64,000 bases of DNA from positions 32,001 to 96,000 of the IMG/VR virus record IMGVR_UViG_3300013232_000047; one strand, 5' to 3'. Under the pieces are notes generated by a model. That model saw only the letters and a program-made list of their open reading frames with translations. It made no database searches and was not told the DNA's origin. This document shows positions 1-64,000 of the stretch, piece by piece. Position numbers and translations under genes: made by a program. This DNA is from a virus. Numbering within the stretch: the first letter of the stretch is position 1; every line of letters starts with the position of its first letter.

Positions 1-3000
1 AAAGCCGTTCGGTACGACAAGTTTTATCGGGATGTGCTGCTTTACTGGCACGGTGAAACGCTGATCGAGGACGTAGACACGGGCAAAACTCGGGTACCGA
101 GTGCTTTGGTCACCTTGTTTGATCCGAACAATCCGCTGGGAGCTGAGCCTTTGCAGCCGGGAGCTGCGTCTCCGATATGTGCTAAATGCAAACTATTCGA
201 GACAGGGTGCAAGAGCCCCTTTATGCAGCCAGTTGGTTCTGAGACGCCGCTGGTTACCATAATCTGTGACAGCGTGACCAAGAATGAGGACGCGAAAGGG
301 CAGATAAGCATCGACGGTTTTCCCGGTTGGATAGCGAAAATAATCCACGCTTGCAGAGAAGAAACGGGTGTGTCACTCGATGACATCCGATGGTTTCCGC
401 TGACTCGGTGTGCTAATGCAGGTAAAGCCAAGGTGGACTATAAGATCAAAGGAAACTGGTGCCGTTACCATCTCGTGGATGACCTGATGAGGCACCCGCC
501 TAAGCTCATCATACCCGTAGGCACAGCTTCGCTGGGCATGCTCTGCCATAAGTCTAATGCGCAGGATTGGCAGGGTAAATTGCTTACCTACCGTGGTTGG
601 CCTGACGACTGGTTGACTGACAAGCGCTTCGTTTTGCCCCGGCCTCATCCAGTAGACGCAACAAAACAGATAACGGGACATCCTGTCTTTGGCGAAGTTC
701 CTAGTGTGCGCATACCGATGATGCCAATTCAGAGTCCTCGTCTTGTTTTGCTTGCGATGAACAAGGTTGTAACCGCTCGGTGGAAACAGATCCTTGTTAA
801 TGCCATGAAGCTCGTGAAGGAGGGCGTTAAACCGAAGGTGTACACGCGTCCGTGGTATCGTTTTACTACTGACCCGGACGTAGCAGCGGAGGGCCTTTGT
901 GAAATTATTAACAATCCGGGGATGCTGCTCTGCTACGACACAGAAACTACTGGATTAAAGCCATGGTCATTTCACAAGCTCTGTACGACTAAGCTGCCCA
1001 CACCGCCAGCTATCGTCAGCATGATGTTCCGATGGAGCGATCCAAAGACAGGTAATTCACGGTCGATTGGTTTTCCATGGGATTACGAAGCCAGTCCAAT
1101 GAAGCCCTATTTAAAAATACTGGGTCCATTGGTTTACGAGGCGCTGACTAAGTCTAAGCTTATTGGTCATAATTTGACTTTTGATGTTTTGTATACTTTT
1201 GCCACGTTGTACCAGAAATGGTTGGTAGGATGGGATAATCCCGAGTTTAACAAAAAGCGTGATCGTTGGCTTTGTGCTTTGGCTGACGCTGCGAAATTCG
1301 ACACATGGCATGCGGCGTACACTTACATGCAGCGTGTCGGGTCATTGGGCTTGGAAATCATAGCCTATGATTGGGCACCTGAATTGGCCGGTTACGAGGA
1401 GGACATGGTTCTGCTTATCGAGCTTCATAAGGAGGCCATGCATCCCGGTGAAAATAAAGGCGGGCACTATCTCAACTGCGACAAGAAATATTGGCCTACG
1501 CATGTTATTCCGTATGTGATGGGAGACGTGGAATCCTGCTTTTTGGCTTCAGGACGCTTGCGTGAAAAGCTCAAGTCTACGGAAGGAAGACGCTACAACA
1601 TTCCACTTGCCCGGCCCGGCTCGCCCGGTCGTTTTCGTTTCTATACTCCCCTTTCACGTGCTTTTGTCTACGAAAGCATCATGGTTCCAGCGGCAGCGGT
1701 CCTTATGAAAATCATGGGTCGTGGCATGACCGTTGATCTCAAAAAACTCAATCAGATGGAGACCGCGTTGCCTAAAACTATCAGCGATCTTAGAACCAAG
1801 TTGAAGCAGGAGACTCCGGCGATCGGTCAATGGTGTGAGGAACAGGCATCACTTACTCCGGGATGGGAACTGGATTTGGAGAATAAGGGCCACTTGAAAG
1901 ACCTTTTGTTTAACGTGCTCAATCTGCCTGTTCAGCGCTTTACCAAAAATGGTAAGAAGTTTTACGGTGAGGACGAAAAGGCTTGGTCTGAGAATATCGA
2001 GAGCGCGGTTAAAAAACGGTTTCCTGACCTTGCTGAAGTTGAGCTGACTAAGAAAATAAGGGAGGAATGGCTTGAATTTGCAGCTACGGATAAGTTTACG
2101 CTAAACAGGATGGCTGTTGACCATGAGAGTGTACGACCATTGCAGGACTATCGTAAAGTCTACAAGTTATATTCAACCTACGTGCGTCCGCTGCGAAATA
2201 TTACCGTGGTTGGCCTCGACAAAAAGGCTCGTGTTAAGGACCCTCACCTGTGCTCAGATGCTTGTATTCACGCTAGCTTTTTAATGACAGGTACGCGTGG
2301 GGGACGACTTTGTGTGTCTGGTGATACTCGACTTGAAGTTAGAGTCGATGGCGTGAAGAAAGTTGTTGTAATTTCAGACTTGTGGAAGCACATTAATCAG
2401 CATGTTACAGTCAAAACACACTGTGGGCGATGGCAGCGAATCAAACGTCTGTACTTCAAGGGTTACGAGCGGATGTTTGAAGCAACTACTGAAAGCGGCG
2501 GCACGGTTAAAGCAACAGCCGAGCACAGGGTTTTCAGTGAGCGAGGATGGCAGTCTCTTGGGGTTGTTGCCGGACAAAAGCTCAAGTTATTCGTTGATTT
2601 GGCATCCGCAACTAGGACTGGTTTTGAACGAACAAAGTTTTCGGAGGTTGGCGCTACAAAAACAAATGAGTTTTCAGCAGATGAGCGAAACGATTTCAAG
2701 GCGTGTGGCTTTACGGAGCTGGCGGGCCTACCCTCAGTTGAAAGCGGAACTTCAACGGTTGCATCGGGCGCGTTTGGCCGATGCTCAGAAGGGCAACGAA
2801 AATGGTCGGAGAATGCCGTCAGTAGCGCTGCCAGAGGCCAAATTGGAGGCTTTGATCAGCCGTGGAATACCCATAGAGCGCATCGCGAAGGAGATGAAAA
2901 CAACGCCTTTTTTAGTCGAACGGAACATTCAGGTGTATGGGTTGCAGAAATTGGGCAACGCGCCGGTTCGTGCCAGAGTTCTGACAGAGTTTCAACTGAA

Positions 3001-5658
3001 GCAGATAGAAGCAGCGTGTCCGGGGTTGACAACATCTTTTGCGAGTTATTCTACGGACAAGGAGAGTTTTTTCCGAAAAGCTTATCAAGCGTACATGAGT
3101 CTTTTGCAGCAGGCTTGGTTTTTGAAGGATATGTGTCAGATGCCGTTTACACGATTGAAGGAGGACAGAGGTGGTATGGAGGAAATTTCGTGGTCGATGA
3201 ACCGCCACGAGTTGGCACTGTCTCAAGAGCTATTGTCTTTGAATATTCCGAATTATCGGGAGTACGTATACAGTGGGAACAAACGAGCCGACTTTGGGCT
3301 GATTGGCACGAACATCCTGATAGAAGTGGACGGAGATTACCATGTAGAGGCTCAAGACAAAGTCAATACAAGCATAGCCGAGCATTTAGGCTATCAAGTA
3401 CTGCGCTTCACAACACGCCAAGTCCAATTCAAAATGTCGGCGGTGATTGCCGAAATACAGGGCGCTTTGAAGCAGTCATTCAGTGGCGTTCCGTTGGTGT
3501 CCAAGCGGTGTGGGACATTGAAGTTGAAGGCGACCACAGCTACTTAGCACAAGGTCTTTTTCATCATAACTCATGCCGGGACCCAAATTTGCAGCAGCTA
3601 CCTCGTGATGGGGAAGTTAAGAGCCTTTACATTTCTCGATTTGGGAAGCGTGGCTGCATGTATCAGGGCGATCTTTCACAAGTTGAGCTGCGTCTGATGG
3701 CATCGGCTTGCGGTGATCCGACCATGGTTAAGGCGTACTTTGACGAAACAGACCTTCACACGCTTACAACTAGCCGTATTTTTAACACGCCTTACGAGCA
3801 TTTTAGTAAGGACTACATGAAGTGGCTTCAGGAGAGGCATAGAGACAAGGAAGCCAAGGAATTGAGTCAAAAGCGTAACATTGGAAAGTGTGTCGATCCG
3901 TCTACACTGGTGTCTGTAAACGGTCGAATCACGCGTATCGGTGATATTCACGCAGGAAGGGAAGAAGATACGTTTTATCCGATGAGCGGCAGGCACGTAC
4001 AGACTCCGAACGGCACGCAGGAAATTAGAGAATTTTATTGTAGCGGCATAAAAGAAAGAGTGCTTGTATGCAGTTTACACGGGATTATCAGCTGTAGTCC
4101 AAATCACCGCTTTCAACTTGCCGACGGTAGTTTGATTCAAGCGTCTCTTTTGAAAAAGGGTATGCTGTTGGCTGATGGCCAATCCTTGGTATGCGAACAC
4201 GTAAAAGCTGGCGTGTTTTTCGACCCATTTGGCACTTCGCCTAAATCAAATGTGTTCCAGATAAATATAACTCCAGATTTAGCTTACGTTCTTGGTCTGT
4301 TTTATGGTGATGGATGCTCTAACCTCGGTGAAGTTTCTATCTGTACAGGTGGAACACCCGAGTTTTTTGAATGGCAGGACATCATTGCGGATTCAGTGAG
4401 AAGGGCTGGTTTTTATCCAAAAATTGACCGAACAGTTTGGAGTAGTGAGGTTAGTGGGCCAAAAGTAATTAAGACAGGACCCACGGTTGGGCAGGAGATT
4501 AACGGAGCTTACGGACTTGTTAACTTTGGATGCACTAGGGTTTCCGACTTATTTATTCAGCTTGGGGCTGTAGACGAGACACGTTTTCGACGGCGGACGC
4601 TTACTTTACCTGAATGGATGTTCAACGCTCCAGACGATGTAAAATTGGAGTTTATTGCCGGAGTGCTGGATACGGATGGCTATGTAAAAAAGGACGGTAG
4701 CGCCTCTATTTGTACAAAATCGTGGCGATTTGCCCAAGACTTAATGGTGCTTGTTGGAACACTCGGCATTGCCTGCACGGTTGCGCCGGACTGGAATAAA
4801 ACCTACGAGCGCTATTACTTTATAGTCCGTTTTGCTCGACGTGACTCACACTTGTTTGCAGATAAATTGCGTAATCCCGGCAAGCGTGGCAGGATTAAAC
4901 CGGTAGTGTTTAGGTACTCAAAACGTGTTAAAAATAGGGTGACCTTGGTAATGGAGCAGGAACCTTCAATGCTTGTAGAGATCGCTATTGATAGCCCACA
5001 TCTGTATACTCCTGAAGGACTTACAACTCATCAAACGGTAAACTTCTTAACAGGTTATGGAGGAGGAGCTTTTGGGCTTCAAAACGTGTTAGCAGCCAAG
5101 TCTATCTATTTGAGCATCGAGCAGTGCGAAGCTATTATTGAATCCTTTTTCGCGTCGTACCCTGCTCTCCAGCGGTTCCTGATGTATTACAAGCAATTCA
5201 TAGTGGAGCAGCACGTGGCTGTTTCTATTTTTGGACGTGTCAGGGTGTTTGAAGAAGTTCAAGGTGACGACCAAGAGGCTAAAGCCAAAGCGCTTCGGGC
5301 CGGGTGTAACCACGTTATTCAATCGACGGCTTCAGACATGATGCTTTTGGCACTTGTTGCCATCGAAGACATGATGAAAGAAGCGGACCTTGAATCCATT
5401 TTGGTATCAACAGTGCATGACTCTCTTTTGGTAGATTGTGTACAATCTGAATTGCCTGTGGTTCACGATATTGTGACAACTGTTTTGAATAATTTTCCAA
5501 CAGTGCTGCCTGCACTGCTTGGCGCTGATTTTGATACAAGCTGGCTTCTGGTCCCCTTCACGGGGGACTGTGAAGTAGGCTTGGATTATTTGAGTGCAAA
5601 GTCCATTCCAAAGGATAACATCGACTGGGACAAACTTCTGTATCCTAGCAATGAGTAG
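1..5658 (+). CDS. polA: Family A DNA polymerase with N-terminal uracil-DNA glycosylase-like domain, 3'-5' exonuclease and two inteins (probably 5'-truncated)
   Basis: Exo I YDTETTG; TRGGRL|SCRDPNLQQLP; motif A DLSQVELR; motif B KRNIGK|TVNFLTGYG; motif C TVHDSL; CxxC..C N-terminal UDG-4-like region; frame is open from base 1. Confidence 0.95.
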   Translation, partial: KAVRYDKFYRDVLLYWHGETLIEDVDTGKTRVPSALVTLFDPNNPLGAEPLQPGAASPICAKCKLFETGCKSPFMQPVGSETPLVTIICDSVTKNEDAKGQISIDGFPGWIAKIIHACREETGVSLDDIRWFPLTRCANAGKAKVDYKIKGNWCRYHLVDDLMRHPPKLIIPVGTASLGMLCHKSNAQDWQGKLLTYRGWPDDWLTDKRFVLPRPHPVDATKQITGHPVFGEVPSVRIPMMPIQSPRLVLLAMNKVVTARWKQILVNAMKLVKEGVKPKVYTRPWYRFTTDPDVAAEGLCEIINNPGMLLCYDTETTGLKPWSFHKLCTTKLPTPPAIVSMMFRWSDPKTGNSRSIGFPWDYEASPMKPYLKILGPLVYEALTKSKLIGHNLTFDVLYTFATLYQKWLVGWDNPEFNKKRDRWLCALADAAKFDTWHAAYTYMQRVGSLGLEIIAYDWAPELAGYEEDMVLLIELHKEAMHPGENKGGHYLNCDKKYWPTHVIPYVMGDVESCFLASGRLREKLKSTEGRRYNIPLARPGSPGRFRFYTPLSRAFVYESIMVPAAAVLMKIMGRGMTVDLKKLNQMETALPKTISDLRTKLKQETPAIGQWCEEQASLTPGWELDLENKGHLKDLLFNVLNLPVQRFTKNGKKFYGEDEKAWSENIESAVKKRFPDLAEVELTKKIREEWLEFAATDKFTLNRMAVDHESVRPLQDYRKVYKLYSTYVRPLRNITVVGLDKKARVKDPHLCSDACIHASFLMTGTRGGRLCVSGDTRLEVRVDGVKKVVVISDLWKHINQHVTVKTHCGRWQRIKRLYFKGYERMFEATTESGGTVKATAEHRVFSERGWQSLGVVAGQKLKLFVDLASATRTGFERTKFSEVGATKTNEFSADERNDFKACGFTELAGLPSVESGTSTVASGAFGRCSEGQRKWSENAVSSAARGQIGGFDQPWNTHRAHREGDENNAFFSRTEHSGVWVAEIGQRAGSCQSSDRVSTEADRSSVSGVDNIFCELFYGQGEFFPKSLSSVHESFAAGLVFEGYVSDAVYTIEGGQRWYGGNFVVDEPPRVGTVSRAIVFEYSELSGVRIQWEQTSRLWADWHEHPDRSGRRLPCRGSRQSQYKHSRAFRLSSTALHNTPSPIQNVGGDCRNTGRFEAVIQWRSVGVQAVWDIEVEGDHSYLAQGLFHHNSCRDPNLQQLPRDGEVKSLYISRFGKRGCMYQGDLSQVELRLMASACGDPTMVKAYFDETDLHTLTTSRIFNTPYEHFSKDYMKWLQERHRDKEAKELSQKRNIGKCVDPSTLVSVNGRITRIGDIHAGREEDTFYPMSGRHVQTPNGTQEIREFYCSGIKERVLVCSLHGIISCSPNHRFQLADGSLIQASLLKKGMLLADGQSLVCEHVKAGVFFDPFGTSPKSNVFQINITPDLAYVLGLFYGDGCSNLGEVSICTGGTPEFFEWQDIIADSVRRAGFYPKIDRTVWSSEVSGPKVIKTGPTVGQEINGAYGLVNFGCTRVSDLFIQLGAVDETRFRRRTLTLPEWMFNAPDDVKLEFIAGVLDTDGYVKKDGSASICTKSWRFAQDLMVLVGTLGIACTVAPDWNKTYERYYFIVRFARRDSHLFADKLRNPGKRGRIKPVVFRYSKRVKNRVTLVMEQEPSMLVEIAIDSPHLYTPEGLTTHQTVNFLTGYGGGAFGLQNVLAAKSIYLSIEQCEAIIESFFASYPALQRFLMYYKQFIVEQHVAVSIFGRVRVFEEVQGDDQEAKAKALRAGCNHVIQSTASDMMLLALVAIEDMMKEADLESILVSTVHDSLLVDCVQSELPVVHDIVTTVLNNFPTVLPALLGADFDTSWLLVPFTGDCEVGLDYLSAKSIPKDNIDWDKLLYPSNE
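2311..3570 (+). mobile_element. Intein 1 in polA (420 aa)
   Basis: Starts CVSGDT, block B TAEHRVF, ends VWDIEVEGDHSYLAQGLFHHN followed by Ser; removal restores GGRL-SCRDPNLQ. Confidence 0.93.
2402..3547 (+). CDS. Vsr/DUF559-like endonuclease overprinted in +1 frame inside intein 1 (true start uncertain, perhaps 2620-2680)
   Basis: YREY..RADFGLIGTNILIEVDGDYH..LGYQVLRFT motif, preceded by HTH-like IPIERIAKEM segment. Confidence 0.8.
   Translation: MLQSKHTVGDGSESNVCTSRVTSGCLKQLLKAAARLKQQPSTGFSVSEDGSLLGLLPDKSSSYSLIWHPQLGLVLNEQSFRRLALQKQMSFQQMSETISRRVALRSWRAYPQLKAELQRLHRARLADAQKGNENGRRMPSVALPEAKLEALISRGIPIERIAKEMKTTPFLVERNIQVYGLQKLGNAPVRARVLTEFQLKQIEAACPGLTTSFASYSTDKESFFRKAYQAYMSLLQQAWFLKDMCQMPFTRLKEDRGGMEEISWSMNRHELALSQELLSLNIPNYREYVYSGNKRADFGLIGTNILIEVDGDYHVEAQDKVNTSIAEHLGYQVLRFTTRQVQFKMSAVIAEIQGALKQSFSGVPLVSKRCGTLKLKATTAT
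3889..5034 (+). mobile_element. Intein 2 in polA (382 aa) with LAGLIDADG endonuclease and C-terminal Gln
   Basis: Starts CVDPST, block B SPNHRF, LAYVLGLFYGDG and FIAGVLDTDG motifs, ends TTHQ followed by Thr; removal restores motif B. Confidence 0.93.
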
Positions 5659-31956: not shown

Positions 31957-32413
31957 TTTCATAGTTCCAGACTCTGCTGTTTTCGGTTCCTTTTTTAGGG
32001 CTAACTTTTTCTCGGATTATTTCGTAAGAATACAGTTTGAGTGGCAACGACCATACGTGCGTTTTACATCTGTTGCAGTAGCAGCCGAACAGGACCCACG
32101 AAGGAGACCGGCGACGCCACACACCGCGTGGCTGATGAGGTGTAATGTAGCGAGGGTAAGTTATGATTTTGTCTAATTTGCTTTCGCAGTGAGCGCAAAT
32201 TAGTTTCTTTTTCTGACGTTCCAGCCATCCACGTTTCCAGAGGCGCTGGGCGGTTGAAACGCTGCGGTCGATGGCAGTGCCCACTTGTTCCCAGCTCTGA
32301 CCTCGTTCGCGAAGTTCACACATTAACTCCCAGCGCCGGGCTGAGTTTCTCCTAGCCCATGACCCGGCGTGTAATCGAAAAAGTTCGCGTTTGCTTACGA
32401 CATCTGCATTCAT
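31916..32413 (-). CDS. HTH and zinc-ribbon hypothetical protein
   Basis: GQSWEQVGTAIDRSVSTAQRL HTH; CAHC..CNRC; GTTCTTTAGTTAAG upstream. Confidence 0.65.
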   Translation of the reverse strand: MNADVVSKRELFRLHAGSWARRNSARRWELMCELRERGQSWEQVGTAIDRSVSTAQRLWKRGWLERQKKKLICAHCESKLDKIITYPRYITPHQPRGVWRRRSPSWVLFGCYCNRCKTHVWSLPLKLYSYEIIREKVSPKKGTENSRVWNYEMVPRHGNAPCSAR

Positions 32414-58657: not shown

Positions 58658-58675
58658 TCTGTTTGGTAGAAATTC

Positions 58676-58708
58676 AAAAGCCCCCGGAGTTTCCTCCGGG
58701 GGCTTTTT
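58676..58708. terminator. Bidirectional intrinsic terminator between capsid gene and TIGR array
   Basis: AAAAGCCCCCGGAG-TTTC-CTCCGGGGGCTTTTT. Confidence 0.9.
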
Positions 58709-58721
58709 CGCTTATAACCTA

Positions 58722-59824
58722 TGGTGCTTTAACCCTGCACGGCTCGCTCTCACGTGTTGGTGCTCTCTACCTATCTGGCTCGCTCTGTAGTATCGGTGCT
58801 CTTGCTCGCTCTGGCTCGCTCATCTATAATGCTACTTTCACTTATTTTGGCTCGCTCGTTCATCACGGTGCTCTCATGTGTGACGGCTCGCTCACATCTC
58901 GTGGTGCTCTTCGCGGCTGTGGCTCGCTCTTCAGTTTTGGTGCTCTCTCGGTCTCTGGCTCGCTTCTTTACGTTGGTGCTCTCTACCTATCTGGCTCGCT
59001 CTGTAGTATCGGTGCTCTTGCTGGTTATGGCTCGCTCGTAATCTTTGGTGCTCTCAGCTTCCCCGGCTCGCTCTATTTCATCGGTGCTCTCTGAAATTGC
59101 GGCTCGCTCAGTCGCTTTGGTACTCTTTGTGGCCCCGGCTCGCTCTTTCATCTCGGTGCTCTACTTCGCAATGGCTCGCTTCTTTCCTGTGGTAATCTCT
59201 TAGGCTATGGCTCGCTCTATCGTTTTGGTGCTCTTCCTTTCAAAGGCTCGCTTCCGCATTTTGGTGCTCTCGGGTTCAATGGCTCGCTACTCCTGCTTGG
59301 TGCTCTTTGGCGATTTGGCTCGCTCTGTGTCTTTGGTGCTCTCCGACATGGCGGCTCGCTCGCGCTCTACGGTGCTCTTCAACGGATTGGCTCGCTCCTG
59401 CTGGTTGGTGCTCTCTGTCGGCACGGCTCGCTCTACTGTTTTGGTGCTCTCACGGTCTCTGGCTCGCTTATTCTTTTTGGTGCTCTCCTGCCATTTGGCT
59501 CGCTATCTTACTGTGCTGCTATTGTCATTTTTGGCTCGCTCGGGTTCTACGGTGCTCTATGCGTCCTTGGCTCGCTTTCCTGATGTGGTGCTCTAGCTTC
59601 TTGTGGCTCGCTCATCTATAACGTTGCTGTCACCTTTTCTGGCTCGCTCAATCTTCGTGGTGCTCTCTGGCTTTGTGGCTCGCTCATCATCTCTGGTGCT
59701 CTCCCTTGAGGTGGCTCGCTCCTAGACTTTGGTGCTCTTCGTTTACGTGGCTCGCTCTCGCATCACGGTGCTCTCGTATGTAATGGCTCGCTTGCATTCA
59801 ACGGTGCTCTACGTCTGTTTGGCT
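58722..59824 (-). repeat. TIGR-type array 2: 31 units of 36 nt
   Basis: Minus strand AGCGAGCCA-9 nt-AGAGCACCA-9 nt; exact 36-nt phase checked at 58722, 59082, 59442, 59802. Confidence 0.92.
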
Positions 59825-60081
59825 TAAATTCGTCGCCATTCTGCAATTGCTCGCATGTTGCTGGAAGGAACTTGGCTGGGTGCGTATCGACCCGTTTTTT
59901 CAATCAATTTGTCTTTTCTAGCTTGTCGAAAAACGCATCCCCAAGCGTTGGGATGCGCTGGATTTGCAGATTGGTTTTGATGTGCCTTAATGCGGATATC
60001 ATCAGAGTTAAAGAGTGTTCCGATGGGAATCCGGATGATGAGACGCATAATTTCCTCTTGCCATGCGCTGTGGTGTTGCAT
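59824..60081 (-). CDS. Small basic protein between arrays (winged-helix-like)
   Basis: FNSDDIR..PAHPNAWG.VF..LIEKTG pattern. Confidence 0.7.
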   Translation of the reverse strand: MQHHSAWQEEIMRLIIRIPIGTLFNSDDIRIKAHQNQSANPAHPNAWGCVFRQARKDKLIEKTGRYAPSQVPSSNMRAIAEWRRI

Positions 60082-60083
60082 GT

Positions 60084-60998
60084 CTAGCTCGCTTTCGCTT
60101 CTGTTGCTTGTCTGTCTAAAAGGTCATTCAGTTTAAGGACTAGGCGCTGTAGTGCCCTGTAGTCTTTCAGGTGGGTATAGTACTCTGTGACGATATTTTC
60201 AACGGTTGCTGTGTCAAAGGACGTACCGTCGATGATCAGGTTTTTGTCACTGAATCCCCAGCGGCAGGATTTGATCTTTTGAACCTGCAGCGTAGCTTGT
60301 GCCTCTTTCAAAATCGTAGCCTTGTCTTGGACGAGCTTCTTGCCCGGCAGGATGATTCTGGACTGCCACGCGCTGATCTTGTCCTTGTCTACGGCCTGTT
60401 CCACTACGATCTTAGTCTTGCCATCCGTTGTCACCTTTCTAGGGATAAGGAGAGTTTTGGTTTTAAGGATGTGATCCTGTGTATCGGCGGTGGCTTCTGT
60501 CATTATGACGCGCTGATAAAGCGGGCATCGGGACGTGAAAAACTGATAGCTTATACGGTTACGGCCAATCGCGTCTAAAGCACGCAGAAAACCTGCGTCG
60601 ATGCTGGGACAGTTCCGAAGGATATCAGCATCTATTTCAGCTTGTTGTCCGGACGGCGTGCGATCAATCCAAGCGACATAGAGAATTCCGGTAGCTGTCC
60701 ATGCCAGATGTCCAAGGTTAATGCCTCGTATGAACGCTTTTTTAAGTTCCCCGAGGTCAGTCGGAACTAGCAGACGCGATTTAACAAATTCATACGTCGT
60801 CACCGCGTCTGGTGTTGTTGTGAGCAATTCCTGTAAGGACTGCTTGTCGTTAGTTTTAGTGTTTGTGTTTGTTGGTTTAGTCATATATTCGCGCAACTCC
60901 TGTGTTTGTGCGCCCAGTCGGAACTGGGCGCGGTTATGTTGCCGGGCCATCATCGACCCGCGCATTCTGGATATGGCGTTGTTTAATGCTTCGCTCAT
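60084..60998 (-). CDS. Hypothetical protein between arrays
   Basis: 304-aa ORF; start overlaps the last degenerate repeat of array 1. Confidence 0.7.
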   Translation of the reverse strand: MSEALNNAISRMRGSMMARQHNRAQFRLGAQTQELREYMTKPTNTNTKTNDKQSLQELLTTTPDAVTTYEFVKSRLLVPTDLGELKKAFIRGINLGHLAWTATGILYVAWIDRTPSGQQAEIDADILRNCPSIDAGFLRALDAIGRNRISYQFFTSRCPLYQRVIMTEATADTQDHILKTKTLLIPRKVTTDGKTKIVVEQAVDKDKISAWQSRIILPGKKLVQDKATILKEAQATLQVQKIKSCRWGFSDKNLIIDGTSFDTATVENIVTEYYTHLKDYRALQRLVLKLNDLLDRQATEAKAS

Positions 60999-61004
60999 TT
61001 ATTT

Positions 61005-61459
61005 TGGTGCTCTCTGGCTTTGTGGCTCGCTTGCGCATCTCGGTGCTCTCTTCCGCAATGGCTCGCTCTTTGGTTCTGGTGCTCTCATCCTGCTTGGCTC
61101 GCTCTGGTAGACTGGTGCTCTCTCCTGATGTGGCTCGCTCGTGTTGTTTGGTGCTCTCTGGTCCATTGGCTCGCTCTTTGTCCGTGGTGCTCTCCTTTGG
61201 TATGGCTCGCTTGCGTTCAACGGTGCTCTCCTTCACTCTGGCTCGCTTACATTCGGTGGTGCTCTCCTGCAATTCGGCTCGCTCCGCAATAGTGGTGCTC
61301 TCCTGCATTCTGGCTCGCTCTTACGGTTTGGTGCTTTCGCCTTGCGCGGCTCGCTCTTTGGTTCTGGTGCTCTCATCCTGCTTGGCTCGCTCTGGTCAGT
61401 TGGTGCTCTCCGGTGTAATGGCTCGCTCATCGGTGTTGGTGCTCTCCCTAATCATGGCT
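61005..61459 (-). repeat. TIGR-type array 1: 13 units of 36 nt
   Basis: Same two alternating 9-nt repeats and 9-nt spacers; starts at the stop codon of the Nop-domain gene. Confidence 0.92.
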
Positions 61460-62601
61460 TAAGCTGCATCTGCGTTACGCTGCGCATCTGTGTTAAGCTG
61501 TGCTTCTGCCTTATTTTTTCCCAACGGATCTTGCAGGTGGGCATGGCCCAGATGTGAGAAAACATAGGGCTTAGGAGGTTCTTTGTGGAAGTGTTGGCGG
61601 TACATTTCTTGTTGAAAATCAGCCAAGAAACGTTTTGCCACCCAGCGTAAAACTCGGTTGTGGATGTGGCCGGGAGCTAGCTTTCCCTGCTTAAGGATGG
61701 CGCGTTGCTCGTGATCGGGTACCTCCCGTAACTTGGCAGCAGCTTGAGCGGCGTACAGTCCCGCTTCGTTACGAGCTGTTTCATAGGCTTTGCGCTCATC
61801 GTAGCTAAGGCTGTAGGTACTGGCGTCCACAAAACCTTTATTTTTACAGAATGAGTCACCGATGTAATGTTGAAGCACTTTGCACCGAGCATTCCAAGGA
61901 CGCAGCGCCAAAGTTTTCACAATCTGATCTCGTGTCAGCTTGACGCGTTTACCCTTGGCATCGGTGGTGGCGTATTTAAGCATCGAATGATAGTTGCGGT
62001 GAAACGTTTCAGACGCACGTGCCAGAATTTCCAGCGGGGTGCCCTTCTGGGCTTTTACCCATGCTTTTGATTTGTCAGCTCCCAACCACTCCTGCTGTGG
62101 ATTTACTCCGAAAATGGACCAGACATCGCCTGCGGTGAGGGCTTTTTCTGGATCAATGTAAGCCACCAGTGCGGCAGCAATTCCGTGCGAGATGCCTCTG
62201 AATTGCATCGCCCATCGGGCCATGGGCTGTTGCTCGGCCCAGTAACGAACTGCGGTGTTAATCAGCTGTTCCTGCTTGGCAGCGTTTTTGTGGAACCATG
62301 TGAGGACTGCAGGCTGGCGCTGCTCTTCTTTTGGTTTGTGTTCCTCGCGTTTTTTAAGGCTTTTAACCTGATTCCCGGCGCTGATTCGCTTGTCCATGGC
62401 TTGCAGATATTCGCCTATCAATATCTTGGCTTCGAGCCGTGGCATTACGCGGACGTCTTCTGCCATGCCTTTCGGCATTTCAGTGTAGCCGATCGCTTCG
62501 GCTATTTTTTCCATGTCAGTGAGAAAGCAGCTCTCTGTGATTCTCACGTCCACTTTTCTTGGTTTGGTCTTGTCCACTTTTCTCTTAATTTTTTTATCCA
62601 T
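61459..62601 (-). CDS. tasA: TIGR-associated Nop-domain protein without nuclease domain (TasA-like)
   Basis: Coiled coil (QAMDKRISAGNQ), FRGISHGIAAALVAYID..AGDVWSIFG, PWNARCK..IGDSFCK, HIHNRVLRWVAKRFLADF; no DEDD RuvC or HNH; array abuts stop. Confidence 0.85.
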   Translation of the reverse strand: MDKKIKRKVDKTKPRKVDVRITESCFLTDMEKIAEAIGYTEMPKGMAEDVRVMPRLEAKILIGEYLQAMDKRISAGNQVKSLKKREEHKPKEEQRQPAVLTWFHKNAAKQEQLINTAVRYWAEQQPMARWAMQFRGISHGIAAALVAYIDPEKALTAGDVWSIFGVNPQQEWLGADKSKAWVKAQKGTPLEILARASETFHRNYHSMLKYATTDAKGKRVKLTRDQIVKTLALRPWNARCKVLQHYIGDSFCKNKGFVDASTYSLSYDERKAYETARNEAGLYAAQAAAKLREVPDHEQRAILKQGKLAPGHIHNRVLRWVAKRFLADFQQEMYRQHFHKEPPKPYVFSHLGHAHLQDPLGKNKAEAQLNTDAQRNADAA

Positions 62602-62641: not shown

Positions 62642-62671
62642 AGACTACTACAGAAGTGTATACTCTGTCAA
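62642..62671 (-). promoter_or_regulatory. Sigma70-type promoter for the tas operon
   Basis: TTGACA-18-TAGTCT on minus strand. Confidence 0.6.
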
Positions 62672-62712: not shown

Positions 62713-62747
62713 ACTCAGTCTTCTGTCCAAGTGACAGAAGACTGAGT
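62713..62747. terminator. Strong hairpin, possible terminator
   Basis: ACTCAGTCTTCTGTC-CAAGT-GACAGAAGACTGAGT; no clear U tail. Confidence 0.55.
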
Positions 62748-62761
62748 TGATCTGTTAAGCC

Positions 62762-63958
62762 TTATTGAATGCCTTTACCGGCTTTGATAGTTCCAAAAAT
62801 GCCTTGCGCCGCCTGCTGCAAAGGCCGTATACCTGCTACGATACTGGTCAGTGCTTCAGGACTGAAAAGCTTGTCGCGCAGATGTTGACGTCCATTTTTG
62901 ACGAATGTCCACAAGTGAGTGGTCGCTAACCTTACGTGCAGCTCTACCTCTTGGTAGAAGGCTTGTTCAAACGTGTCGAGCTGTTCGATTGGTACGCCAT
63001 TCTTTTGTACTAGGCGCTGTTTGCATGCTTGCCATGCCGCCTGAATCATAGGGTGCCGCAGATGGATTTCAATTGTGGGACCTTGGTTTGGATTAAGGTC
63101 CGAGTTTTGCTGTAATGGCAACGCATCCTTATCTTTTGGATCGTAGGGCTTGTCCACAGTTATGGCCTCTAGCAAGCCGTACGGAACTTTGAATAGTCTA
63201 CCACTACCACGACCTGTTTCTTGTGAGGGAATACGGGGACCGCCCGTGCCAATCGGTATATATGCTTCACCCGCATTGTCATTGTCTAGCTCATGACGAC
63301 GACGACGACGTGTTCCTTTGTATCGCTCTACAAGGATAGTGTTCATGTAGGGCAAGTACTGTTCACCAACCCGGCGTAGTGTTTCATCGTCTATTTCTCC
63401 TCGCATGCTTGCGAAATCGGCAAAATAGTCGTTAATGGCATTCGTAATGAATTGAGGTCGTTTAGACTGGTAGCTGGCTGTCCACTCTTCGACAGGCAGG
63501 TCAGCACCACCTTTGATTCGGTCTTGGTAGTGCAGTGTTCGACGAGACGGGTCAGGAAAAACCTTCGCATCATCTGTGCTTAAAGGCTCCACTACAATAG
63601 CGAGCCGACGGCGTACGGTGTCTGTATTGACCCATGGAAATAGTGCTGTTTTACCACGAGCATGCGTCTGAACGCCGAAGGCTTCAATGATGCCGGGATG
63701 GGCTTCGTGTATGTAGGCAAAGATTGGCACAGATGGTGCGTCTCCAGACTGGTAGCCTGTCCAGCTGTCCTGTCCGGGTTTGCTTTCACCTATGTTAGGA
63801 AAAAGATAAGTCGTTACGTTGGCAGAGACGGTGCTATCTCCGTTAATAAGGACTGTTTCTGTGAAGGGATCGGTGCTAGCCGTTTTTTGCTTACGACGTC
63901 CCATTTCAGCATAGTGCTGTAGGCATTTTTCCATGCCACAGACAGTCCGTTTGTTCAC
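62762..63958 (-). CDS. Hypothetical protein (start may lie further upstream)
   Basis: 398-aa ORF, no motif recognised. Confidence 0.65.
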   Translation of the reverse strand: MNKRTVCGMEKCLQHYAEMGRRKQKTASTDPFTETVLINGDSTVSANVTTYLFPNIGESKPGQDSWTGYQSGDAPSVPIFAYIHEAHPGIIEAFGVQTHARGKTALFPWVNTDTVRRRLAIVVEPLSTDDAKVFPDPSRRTLHYQDRIKGGADLPVEEWTASYQSKRPQFITNAINDYFADFASMRGEIDDETLRRVGEQYLPYMNTILVERYKGTRRRRRHELDNDNAGEAYIPIGTGGPRIPSQETGRGSGRLFKVPYGLLEAITVDKPYDPKDKDALPLQQNSDLNPNQGPTIEIHLRHPMIQAAWQACKQRLVQKNGVPIEQLDTFEQAFYQEVELHVRLATTHLWTFVKNGRQHLRDKLFSPEALTSIVAGIRPLQQAAQGIFGTIKAGKGIQ

Positions 63959-64000
63959 GCCCTTACTTTGTTGTGTTTTCGGCCAGTATTCCTTTTTGCG

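Follow-up and report, generated by a model that had tools for sequence, protein, structure and literature searches.

The TIGR-Tas family of RNA-guided systems was first described in 2025. Here, we analyze a locus from an uncultured tailed phage that almost certainly belongs to this family as a TIGR-TasA locus and that very likely works by guide-directed binding. The locus lies in a 64,000-nt stretch of virus DNA, which we refer to as the window (positions 32,001 to 96,000 of IMG/VR record IMGVR_UViG_3300013232_000047); coordinates are those of the window unless stated otherwise, and the whole 120,022-nt record is referred to as the contig. The locus comprises a gene for a Tas protein that lacks a nuclease domain (tasA), two arrays of guide units downstream of it, and two further protein genes that sit between the arrays.

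Faure et al. (2025; PMC12045711) describe dual-repeat TIGR arrays as having a first edge repeat that is degenerate at its 5' end, a last edge repeat that is truncated at its 3' end, and a terminator; in their account, the repeats may diverge if both of them covary. The same account has the arrays giving rise to 36-nt tigRNAs, whose tandem spacers pair with opposite strands of the target without the need for a protospacer-adjacent motif (PAM). Dual-repeat TIGR-TasA systems such as FpTIGR of Flavonifractor plautii (PMC12045711) share with the phage locus a solo Nop-domain Tas protein and a phage location, together with two alternating short repeats, spacers of about 9 nt, 36-nt units, and matching first and last edges followed by a terminator. 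The phage locus differs from this type in that two protein genes are welded between its arrays and a further array lies far off on the contig. In addition, it has 44 units beside tasA, compared to the 5 to 15 that are commonest in the survey by Faure et al. (PMC12045711), and its repeats start with (G)AG, whereas the TaTasR repeats given in that paper start with UG.

The best match to the phage protein in both sequence and fold is SpTasH from Salicola phage CGphi29 (PDB codes 21kl, 9w03, and 9w04; PMC13421893), which is likewise dual-repeat and phage-borne. SpTasH, as reported there, cuts DNA and carries an HNH nuclease at its N terminus; in place of the latter, the phage TasA has a 52-residue N-terminal tail of low model confidence, and it also has an extra helical insertion at about residues 170 to 233. 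Tas effectors without nuclease activity were studied by Xu et al. (2026; 10.64898/2026.09.09.750476), who report in a bioRxiv preprint that, in Escherichia coli, a reporter and cysG are reversibly repressed by MbTasA and that the protein binds target DNA. MbTasA and the inactive TasR of that study share with the phage TasA the lack of nuclease activity and an expected block of transcription; they come from CPR-type bacteria and were tested with designed targets in E. coli, and the TasR proteins studied bind stem-loop tigRNAs. A first-pass annotation of the window had called the role of TasA unresolved. This view is partly outdated now that MbTasA is reported to repress transcription (10.64898/2026.09.09.750476), and it still holds for the natural role and targets.

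Two further groups resemble the phage locus in part. Some TasA operons encode ParB-like partners (TasA-TasParB; PMC12045711), and these operons, as described, share with the phage locus a TasA protein, repeats of the 10-nt type, and arrays that lie upstream, downstream, and between the genes of one operon. The genes embedded between the phage arrays, by contrast, are orphans in which family scans detected no ParB-like domain. IS110-family RNA-guided recombinases (ISCro4, PDB code 9t56; IS621, PDB code 8wt9) share a Nop-like RNA-binding fold with TasA; the tasA locus differs from them in lacking a DEDD/RuvC-like catalytic domain, a single bridge RNA, and element ends, and in having long arrays of 36-nt units instead.

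The features that make up the phage locus are as follows.

61459..62601, minus strand: tasA, encoding a 380-aa nuclease-less Tas protein, directly upstream of array 1 and co-oriented with it

60990..61463, minus strand: TIGR array 1, 13 units of 36 nt (61463 down to 60996), then a 3'-truncated edge repeat, AGCGAA

60084..60998, minus strand: open reading frame (ORF) ORF304, an orphan of 304 aa between arrays 1 and 2

59824..60081, minus strand: ORF85, 85 aa, which matches phrog_27658, a PHROG of unknown function (7.5e-8)

58708..59828, minus strand: TIGR array 2, 31 units of 36 nt (59828 down to 58713), then a 3'-truncated edge repeat, AGCGA

58666..58707, minus strand: intrinsic terminator that ends array 2, made up of a G+C-rich hairpin of 14 bp (58676-58707) and, next to it, UUUUGAAUUU

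The two arrays hold 44 units (13 plus 31) in a strict 36-nt period, as the first-pass annotation had counted; they contain no insertions or deletions, and over 1.6 kb the period shows no break. Read in the 36-nt register on the minus strand, each unit consists of an edge repeat (AGCGAGCCA), a 9-nt spacer A, a loop repeat (AGAGCACCA), and a 9-nt spacer B. The exact edge, AGCGAGCC[A/G], is found in 42 of the 44 units and the exact loop, AGAGCACC[A/G], in 37 of them; the seven units with a degenerate loop repeat are all in array 2. Both repeats begin with AG (mostly with a G before it) and end with CC[A/G], and CC is kept at both of these terminal positions, which correspond to box C, in 41/44 units. 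The proposed alternation of 9-nt repeats and 9-nt spacers holds up with two refinements. The last base of each repeat is either A or G, and the ninth spacer base is biased, being G in 32 and 34 of 48 rows (of which 47 are real units and one is a terminal pseudo-unit) and never C. Related loci have 10-nt repeats with 8-nt spacers, which, taken together with the bias at the ninth base, indicates that the freely variable core of the spacers here is 8+8 bases. The pairing of spacer A with spacer B is unique in 43/44 units, so that the window holds 43 distinct guides.

The ends of the arrays follow the dual-repeat pattern, with degenerate opening edges (CTTAAGCCA and TTTAAGCCA) and a closing edge that is truncated to AGCGA. 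Searching the contig for AGCGAGCCA-N9-AGAGCACC with up to 1 mismatch gave 38 matches on the reverse strand and none on the forward strand, and a reversed-pattern control gave no matches on either strand of the contig. Tandem Repeats Finder independently reported periods of 36, 72, and 108. We rejected CRISPR-Cas as an assignment; a single repeat of 25 to 36 nt, spacers of similar size, and cas genes would be expected, whereas here two 9-nt repeats alternate with 9-nt spacers. A PADLOC scan of eight proteins returned no family except methyltransferase families for two ORFs upstream of tasA.

TasA was assigned to the family by sequence and by predicted structure. It matches the NCBIfam model NF052498, "TIGR-Tas system RNA-guided endonuclease" (TIGR_Tas_endo), with 125.4 bits against a curated cutoff of 100, and a phmmer search of PDB sequences found only two distinct sequences at an E value of ≤10, namely, TasH (21kl and seven further entries, 1.2e-6) and TasR (9mty, 2.3e-4). 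PHROGs labels the protein "transposase" (phrog_4285, 6.8e-25), and a Pfam search returned nothing at an E value of ≤1. An AlphaFold2 model built from 31 homologues reached a mean pLDDT of 86.8. All nine Foldseek matches at an E value of ≤0.001, and the whole top 10, were TasH or TasR chains. In VIA-align comparisons with representative structures, TasH (Z = 18.0; root mean square deviation [RMSD] = 3.1; 224 residues aligned) and TasR (Z = 17.3; RMSD = 2.3; 194 aligned) ranked above the IS110-family protein ISCro4 (Z = 14.0; RMSD = 3.0; 176 aligned). The remainder scored a Z of ≤7.8, including Prp31 (Z = 6.8; RMSD = 4.5; 163 aligned), which is within the noise band for helical proteins. The comparison with TasR that the first-pass annotation had proposed therefore recovers a Nop fold. 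An IS110-family element was rejected as an identity for the locus, as the ISCro4 match covers chain residues 125 to 320 only, the catalytic domain has no counterpart, and there is no Pfam match to a DEDD transposase.

The model consists of a disordered N-terminal tail (residues 1 to 52), a coiled coil (about residues 55 to 123), the Nop domain, and a C-terminal loop containing Y346 and H353. The Nop domain carries an extra helical insertion (about residues 170 to 233) that is common to 11/30 homologues. The structural alignments start at model residues 53 to 55, facing residue 66 of TasH and residue 111 of TasR; thus, the nuclease domains of TasH and TasR have no counterpart in TasA. Residues 1 to 56 contain one cysteine and no histidine, and the block-mean pLDDT of residues 1 to 30 is below 50. 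No HNH or RuvC nuclease domain was found in TasA by Pfam search or structure alignment. These results agree with the annotated IS110/Nop-type RNA-binding region without RuvC or HNH, and a Tas protein without a nuclease domain is of the TasA subtype. Y346 and H353 align with Y289 and H296 of SpTasH, a Tyr/His dyad that is reported to process the precursor of tigRNA in SpTasH (PMC13421893; 10.64898/2026.09.09.750476). H353 is kept in all 31 homologues, and Y346 is kept in 22 of them, with Phe in the other nine.

TasA is also predicted to form a homodimer, with a score of 0.53 compared to 0.00 for the best of three controls; among proteins of solved structure, 20 of 30 that form pairs of one chain attain the mark used for this call, as does 1 of 23 that were solved as single chains. 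The prediction runs share at least 79% of contacts, the partner pLDDT is at least 75, and the interface involves residues 33 to 117, along the coiled coil. Since Tas dimers have already been solved, this result may reflect likeness to them only and adds little independent proof.

The strong hairpin and U-tract at the end of array 2 bear out the annotated downstream terminator. The hairpin has a predicted folding energy of -32.1 kcal/mol (z = -5.6), and 0 of 200 shuffled sequences folded equally well; a consensus terminator scan did not itself list the hairpin at 58676-58707. On the opposite strand, the same hairpin stands 3' of the major capsid gene. Array 1 has no terminator and ends in a gene, ORF304.

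From these features and from what is reported for the family, a mechanism can be proposed. What we computed directly is how the arrays are built, to which family and fold the protein belongs, that it lacks a nuclease domain, where the terminator lies, and that a homodimer is predicted; the steps of the mechanism itself are carried over from family members. One minus-strand transcript probably spans tasA, array 1, ORF304, ORF85, array 2, and the terminator. TasA would dimerize via its coiled coil and bind the repeats, with CC[A/G] as box C and (G)AG as box D. Cutting in the middle of the edge repeats, probably by the Tyr/His loop of TasA itself (Y346/H353), would yield 36-nt tigRNAs with the order AGCCA, spacer A, AGAGCACCA, spacer B, and AGCG. 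Each ribonucleoprotein may then unwind about 16 to 18 bp of DNA, with spacer A pairing with one strand and spacer B pairing with the neighboring stretch of the opposite strand, presumably without a PAM. The bound complex would block transcription, and possibly replication, without cutting. The lack of a nuclease, together with the repression reported for MbTasA, makes guide-directed DNA binding without cutting the likely mechanism, and we regard binding or repression as the probable natural outcome.

To place the locus among its relatives, we used viral contigs, in which 550 of 601 candidate stretches encode a TasA relative, and analyzed the best 80 of these 550. A crude detector set to a period of about 36 found arrays in 65 of the 80 related loci, many of them with GAGCGAGCCA or GAGAG[A/C]ACC[A/G] as repeats, and these are the 10-nt repeats referred to above. 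The array totals of related loci had a median of 10.8 units, and the largest were 51.8, 43.6, and 32.4 units; hence, 44 units is large but not unique.

Candidate targets were sought by matching the paired spacers in four strand arrangements, of which the three unexpected ones served as internal controls. On the contig with its arrays masked, 47 guides, searched with gaps of 0 to 2 and up to 3 mismatches, gave no match at 0 or 1 mismatch. The same search gave four matches at 2 mismatches over 12 geometry/gap cells, with an estimated 0.24 expected per cell. With 8+8-base cores, gaps of 0 to 6, and up to 1 mismatch, there were no perfect matches in 28 cells; four one-mismatch matches were found, compared to 0.13 expected per cell, and none of them was in the expected geometry. 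The suggestion that the guides aim at the phage itself is thus without support in these 120 kb. One of the four 2-mismatch matches pairs guide A2-20 with contig positions 239-256, where 16 of 18 bases agree in the arrangement expected (spacer A, then the reverse complement of spacer B); it lies inside a lipoprotein-like ORF just upstream of a third array on the contig and may be due to chance. When the guides were compared to the arrays themselves, nothing was found in the opposite-strand geometries, and the same-strand matches that did occur reflect duplication.

Searches beyond the contig gave a similar picture. The 80 related tasA loci (834,625 nt) yielded a single one-mismatch match, in a control geometry. 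Large public collections were scanned with 3 of the 43 distinct guides. Two guides matched 8 stretches (collapsing to three lineages) and 2 stretches of viral_contigs, and when all 47 guides were compared to the single complete phage record among these hits (364,554 nt), only the match by which it had been selected and nine 2-mismatch matches spread over the geometries were found. In genome_contigs, which holds prokaryote genomes, three guides matched 13, 4, and 21 stretches; by arithmetic, about 17 matches are expected for an 18-mer in 596 Gb, and the three lists have no genus in common. The matches in public collections are at chance level, and the paired-spacer search that the first-pass annotation had called for, carried out on the contig, the 80 related loci, and the collections (three guides), found no target. 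The two family reports, where they discuss targets, likewise describe natural targets as not yet determinable (PMC12045711; 10.64898/2026.09.09.750476). Given that the carrier is a lytic-type phage, host genes or co-infecting mobile elements are favored as targets of the guides.

The junctions between genes and arrays are seamless, with zero spare bases. The TAA stop codon of tasA lies inside the first, degenerate edge of array 1, CT[TAA]GCCA (61459-61463), and the stop codon of ORF85 is placed likewise, within the degenerate opening edge of array 2, TT[TAA]GCCA (59824-59828). The ATG of ORF304 is formed by the last 3 nt of the final spacer B of array 1, and its codons 2 and 3 are the truncated edge (60990-60998). 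Enzymatic cutting at the edge repeats at these junctions would touch the mRNAs of tasA, ORF304, and ORF85. Because the tasA stop codon is in an edge repeat and the ORF304 start codon is in a spacer, cutting by TasA would trim its own mRNA and decapitate the mRNA of ORF304. It is conceivable, though improbable, that the tasA-array 1-ORF304-ORF85-array 2 transcript is a self-regulating unit in which maturation of guides competes with gene expression. If so, TasA would set the dose of ORF304 and ORF85, which would be new factors associated with TIGR systems, and the remote array and the shuffled half-guides would reflect growth by recombination between repeats, not acquisition.

Neither of the embedded genes resembles a described family of known function. 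ORF304 has one close homologue, P0033 (56% identity), in which the N terminus MSEALN is kept; for both P0033 and the TasA homologue P0002, the listing names a single contig, 6,552 nt long. Among 1.84 billion representative proteins, eight match ORF304 at an E value of ≤1e-3. It matched no Pfam, PHROG, PADLOC, or NCBIfam family, and a profile search of the PDB reached an E value of 1.1 at best; in the Atlas, it matched unnamed viral clusters only, with DUF3102 on 30% of one cluster. Its AlphaFold2 model has a pLDDT of 53. No homologue of ORF304 was found in the 80 related tasA loci, and searches of viral_contigs with P0034 and P0035, which are remote homologues of ORF304, returned no loci. For ORF85, a PDB search returned chance-level rows only, and weak homologues were found in 2 of the 80 related loci, one of them directly upstream of tasA. 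No ParB-like domain was detected by hmmscan-level search in ORF304, in ORF85, or in nine scanned minus-strand ORFs upstream of tasA; the tasParB genes were reportedly found with HHpred, which reaches further than hmmscan (PMC12045711).

Four further features lie upstream of tasA or elsewhere on the contig.

62666..62671, minus strand: a perfect -35-like TTGACA, read by eye upstream of tasA; the best -10 element is TAGTCT, 18 nt downstream, which matches at 3/6 positions

62713..62747, minus strand: a 15-bp hairpin just past the stop codon of the GHKL ATPase gene (-29.5 kcal/mol; z = -6.1; 0 of 200 shuffles as good)

62762-64000 and past the window end, minus strand: a GHKL-type ATPase of 679 aa, directly upstream of tasA (HATPase_c_3, 29.9 bits, cutoff 25)

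Contig 1-134, outside the window, minus strand: a third TIGR array, built of the same edge and loop repeats and at least four units long, running off the contig start

The hairpin at 62713..62747 is not a canonical intrinsic terminator because no U-tract follows it. Beyond the ATPase gene, upstream on the same strand, comes a gene for an N6/N4 DNA methylase. The third array begins with TAAAAGCCA at the TAA stop codon of a 135-aa lipoprotein-like ORF (contig 132-539; lipobox LTGC), and the contig start probably arose by a break inside a repeat of this array.

The spacers themselves record how the arrays have changed. The 95 spacers include 6 identical pairs compared to 0.09 expected (at most 2 in 300 column shuffles) and 8 pairs with one mismatch compared to 2.4 expected. 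One whole guide is doubled (array 1 units 3 and 11, at 61391 and 61103), the spacer B-edge-spacer A block of array 2 units 23/24 recurs at units 29/30 (58784-59036), and some spacers fill slot A in one unit and slot B in a different unit. In array 2 unit 29, spacer A (GAGCGAGCA) duplicates the edge repeat. The duplicated guides and half-guides indicate that duplication and recombination between repeats are one route of array change. Spacers shared 32 9-mers with related arrays, against 26 expected, and ten of these trace to a single spacer, GAACCAAAG, which fills slot B in units 3 and 11 of array 1 (61382-61390 and 61094-61102). This 9-mer recurs at repeat-spacer junctions of related loci because it overlaps GAGAGAACCA, the loop repeat of other TIGR subfamilies; a 6-base overlap plus three free bases would give such recurrence by chance. 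In the RNA sense, the purine fraction of the spacers is 0.64 to 0.67, compared to 0.53 to 0.56 in the sense strands of neighboring genes. We rejected purine-rich spacers as a rule of the family, as the median in 40 related arrays was 0.56 against a background of 0.543.

Several points weigh against guide-directed binding by this locus as set out above. We sought RNA runs for the stretch and none were listed, so that transcription, processing, and the 36-nt species rest on analogy with the family. The consensus scan upstream of tasA found no sigma-70-like promoter, and the upstream promoter of the first-pass annotation is reduced to TTGACA with a poor -10 element. DNA binding is a prediction, and the searched sequence yielded no natural target for the guides. 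MbTasA, whose activity serves as the model here, comes from a Minisyncoccota bacterium and is a relative of the phage TasA at the family level only. The change of Tyr to Phe in 9/31 homologues, including the nearest homologue, P0002, suggests that self-processing may not hold throughout this clade. Finally, some units may be dead, since 3/44 lack CC at one box-C position and seven have degenerate loops.

These observations leave room for other explanations. TasA could act as a guide-directed recruiter, with ORF304, ORF85, or the GHKL ATPase as effectors that are brought to the target; we consider this unlikely. It would fit the way in which ORF304 and ORF85 join the arrays without spare bases, the listing of the ORF304-like P0033 and of the nearest TasA, P0002, each with one 6,552-nt contig, the position of an ORF85-like gene adjoining tasA in 1/80 related loci and near it in one more, the ATPase gene directly upstream on the same strand, and the ParB-like partners reported for some TasA operons (PMC12045711). 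However, ORF304 has homologues in 0/80 related loci, no recognizable domain, and a poor model (pLDDT, 53), and a strong hairpin separates the ATPase gene from tasA. Somewhat less plausible still is that the guides regulate the phage's own genes, for example, to time its life cycle, with their targets in the part of the genome beyond the contig. Regulation of the viral life cycle is listed as a possible role by Xu et al. (10.64898/2026.09.09.750476), the contig is 53% complete by CheckV, and guide A2-20 has its 16/18 match in the expected geometry in the gene just upstream of the third array. That match is nonetheless one of four with 2 mismatches over 12 cells; no 0- or 1-mismatch match to the contig exists for 47 guides in four geometries with gaps of 0 to 2, and the 8+8 cores with gaps of 0 to 6 gave no perfect match and four one-mismatch matches, none in the expected geometry.

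It is very unlikely that the array is decaying or selfish, without present targets, and maintained by duplication and recombination rather than by use. The 6 identical spacer pairs (0.09 expected), the shared half-guides, the spacer that copies the edge repeat, the seven degenerate loop repeats, and the lack of a target could all be read in this way, yet TasA is intact with the invariant residues of its family, both box-C positions are intact in 41/44 units, the period holds without a break for 1.6 kb, and fragments of at least 99% identity occur in two lake-water runs from two further studies. It is hardly credible that the arrays are translated as a repeat protein, a possibility that had been raised in the first-pass annotation. 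Plus-strand ORFs of 143, 129, 186, and 138 aa do overlap the arrays, but long antisense open frames are explained by the purine-rich spacers, and the open runs are no longer than those of spacer-shuffled arrays (the fraction of 500 shuffles that reached the observed length was 0.36 and 0.61 on the plus strand and 0.30 and 0.93 on the minus strand). Moreover, stops occur in all six frames, variability shows no 3-base periodicity (1.82, 1.82, and 1.85 bits), and 4/4 array ORFs tested matched no PHROG family at an E value of ≤1e-5. Guide-directed binding by a TIGR-TasA locus remains the explanation that we prefer.

The phage that carries this locus is freshwater type and lytic type. CheckV estimates the completeness of the record at 53%, which implies that about half of the phage genome is unseen. 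The phage encodes a Gp23-type capsid protein, a prohead protease, a large DNA polymerase, an NAD-dependent ligase, a UvsX-like recombinase, and several HNH endonucleases, and several free-standing HNH endonuclease genes lie within the window. The DNA polymerase ORF (window 34-5658) encodes 1,874 aa, separate parts of which match several polymerase PHROGs, so that a fusion or insertion is possible. The capsid protein is less than 30% identical to those of isolates in the 15 best phage records listed and less than 60% identical in all 352. Compared to 50,697 phage records, 9 kb of the window had no DNA-level match by megablast, and TasA had no match by tblastn. In metagenome_contigs, no TasA relative exceeded 46% identity, and a scan of viral_contigs with the single TasA protein gave 0 loci. 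When contigs from four DNA runs were compared to the stretch, short pieces covered tasA at ≥99% identity in two lake-water runs (from two further studies), and a freshwater-sediment run held a relative at about 90 to 95% identity with rearranged arrays.

Collectively, these data describe a large but ordinary example of a known family; an NCBI model already names the protein, and what is known of the family is unchanged. TIGR-Tas systems are compact, PAM-free RNA-guided DNA binders that are of interest for genome engineering, and their natural targets and the growth of their arrays are given as open questions in both family reports (PMC12045711; 10.64898/2026.09.09.750476). The points of interest in this locus are the size of its guide set, the remote third array, the fusions between genes and arrays, and the duplication of half-guides. 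As a well-preserved phage example, with 44 units beside tasA, at least four remote units, and 120 kb of context, it is a reasonable test case for the evolution of TIGR arrays and, once the host is known, for the hunt for their targets.

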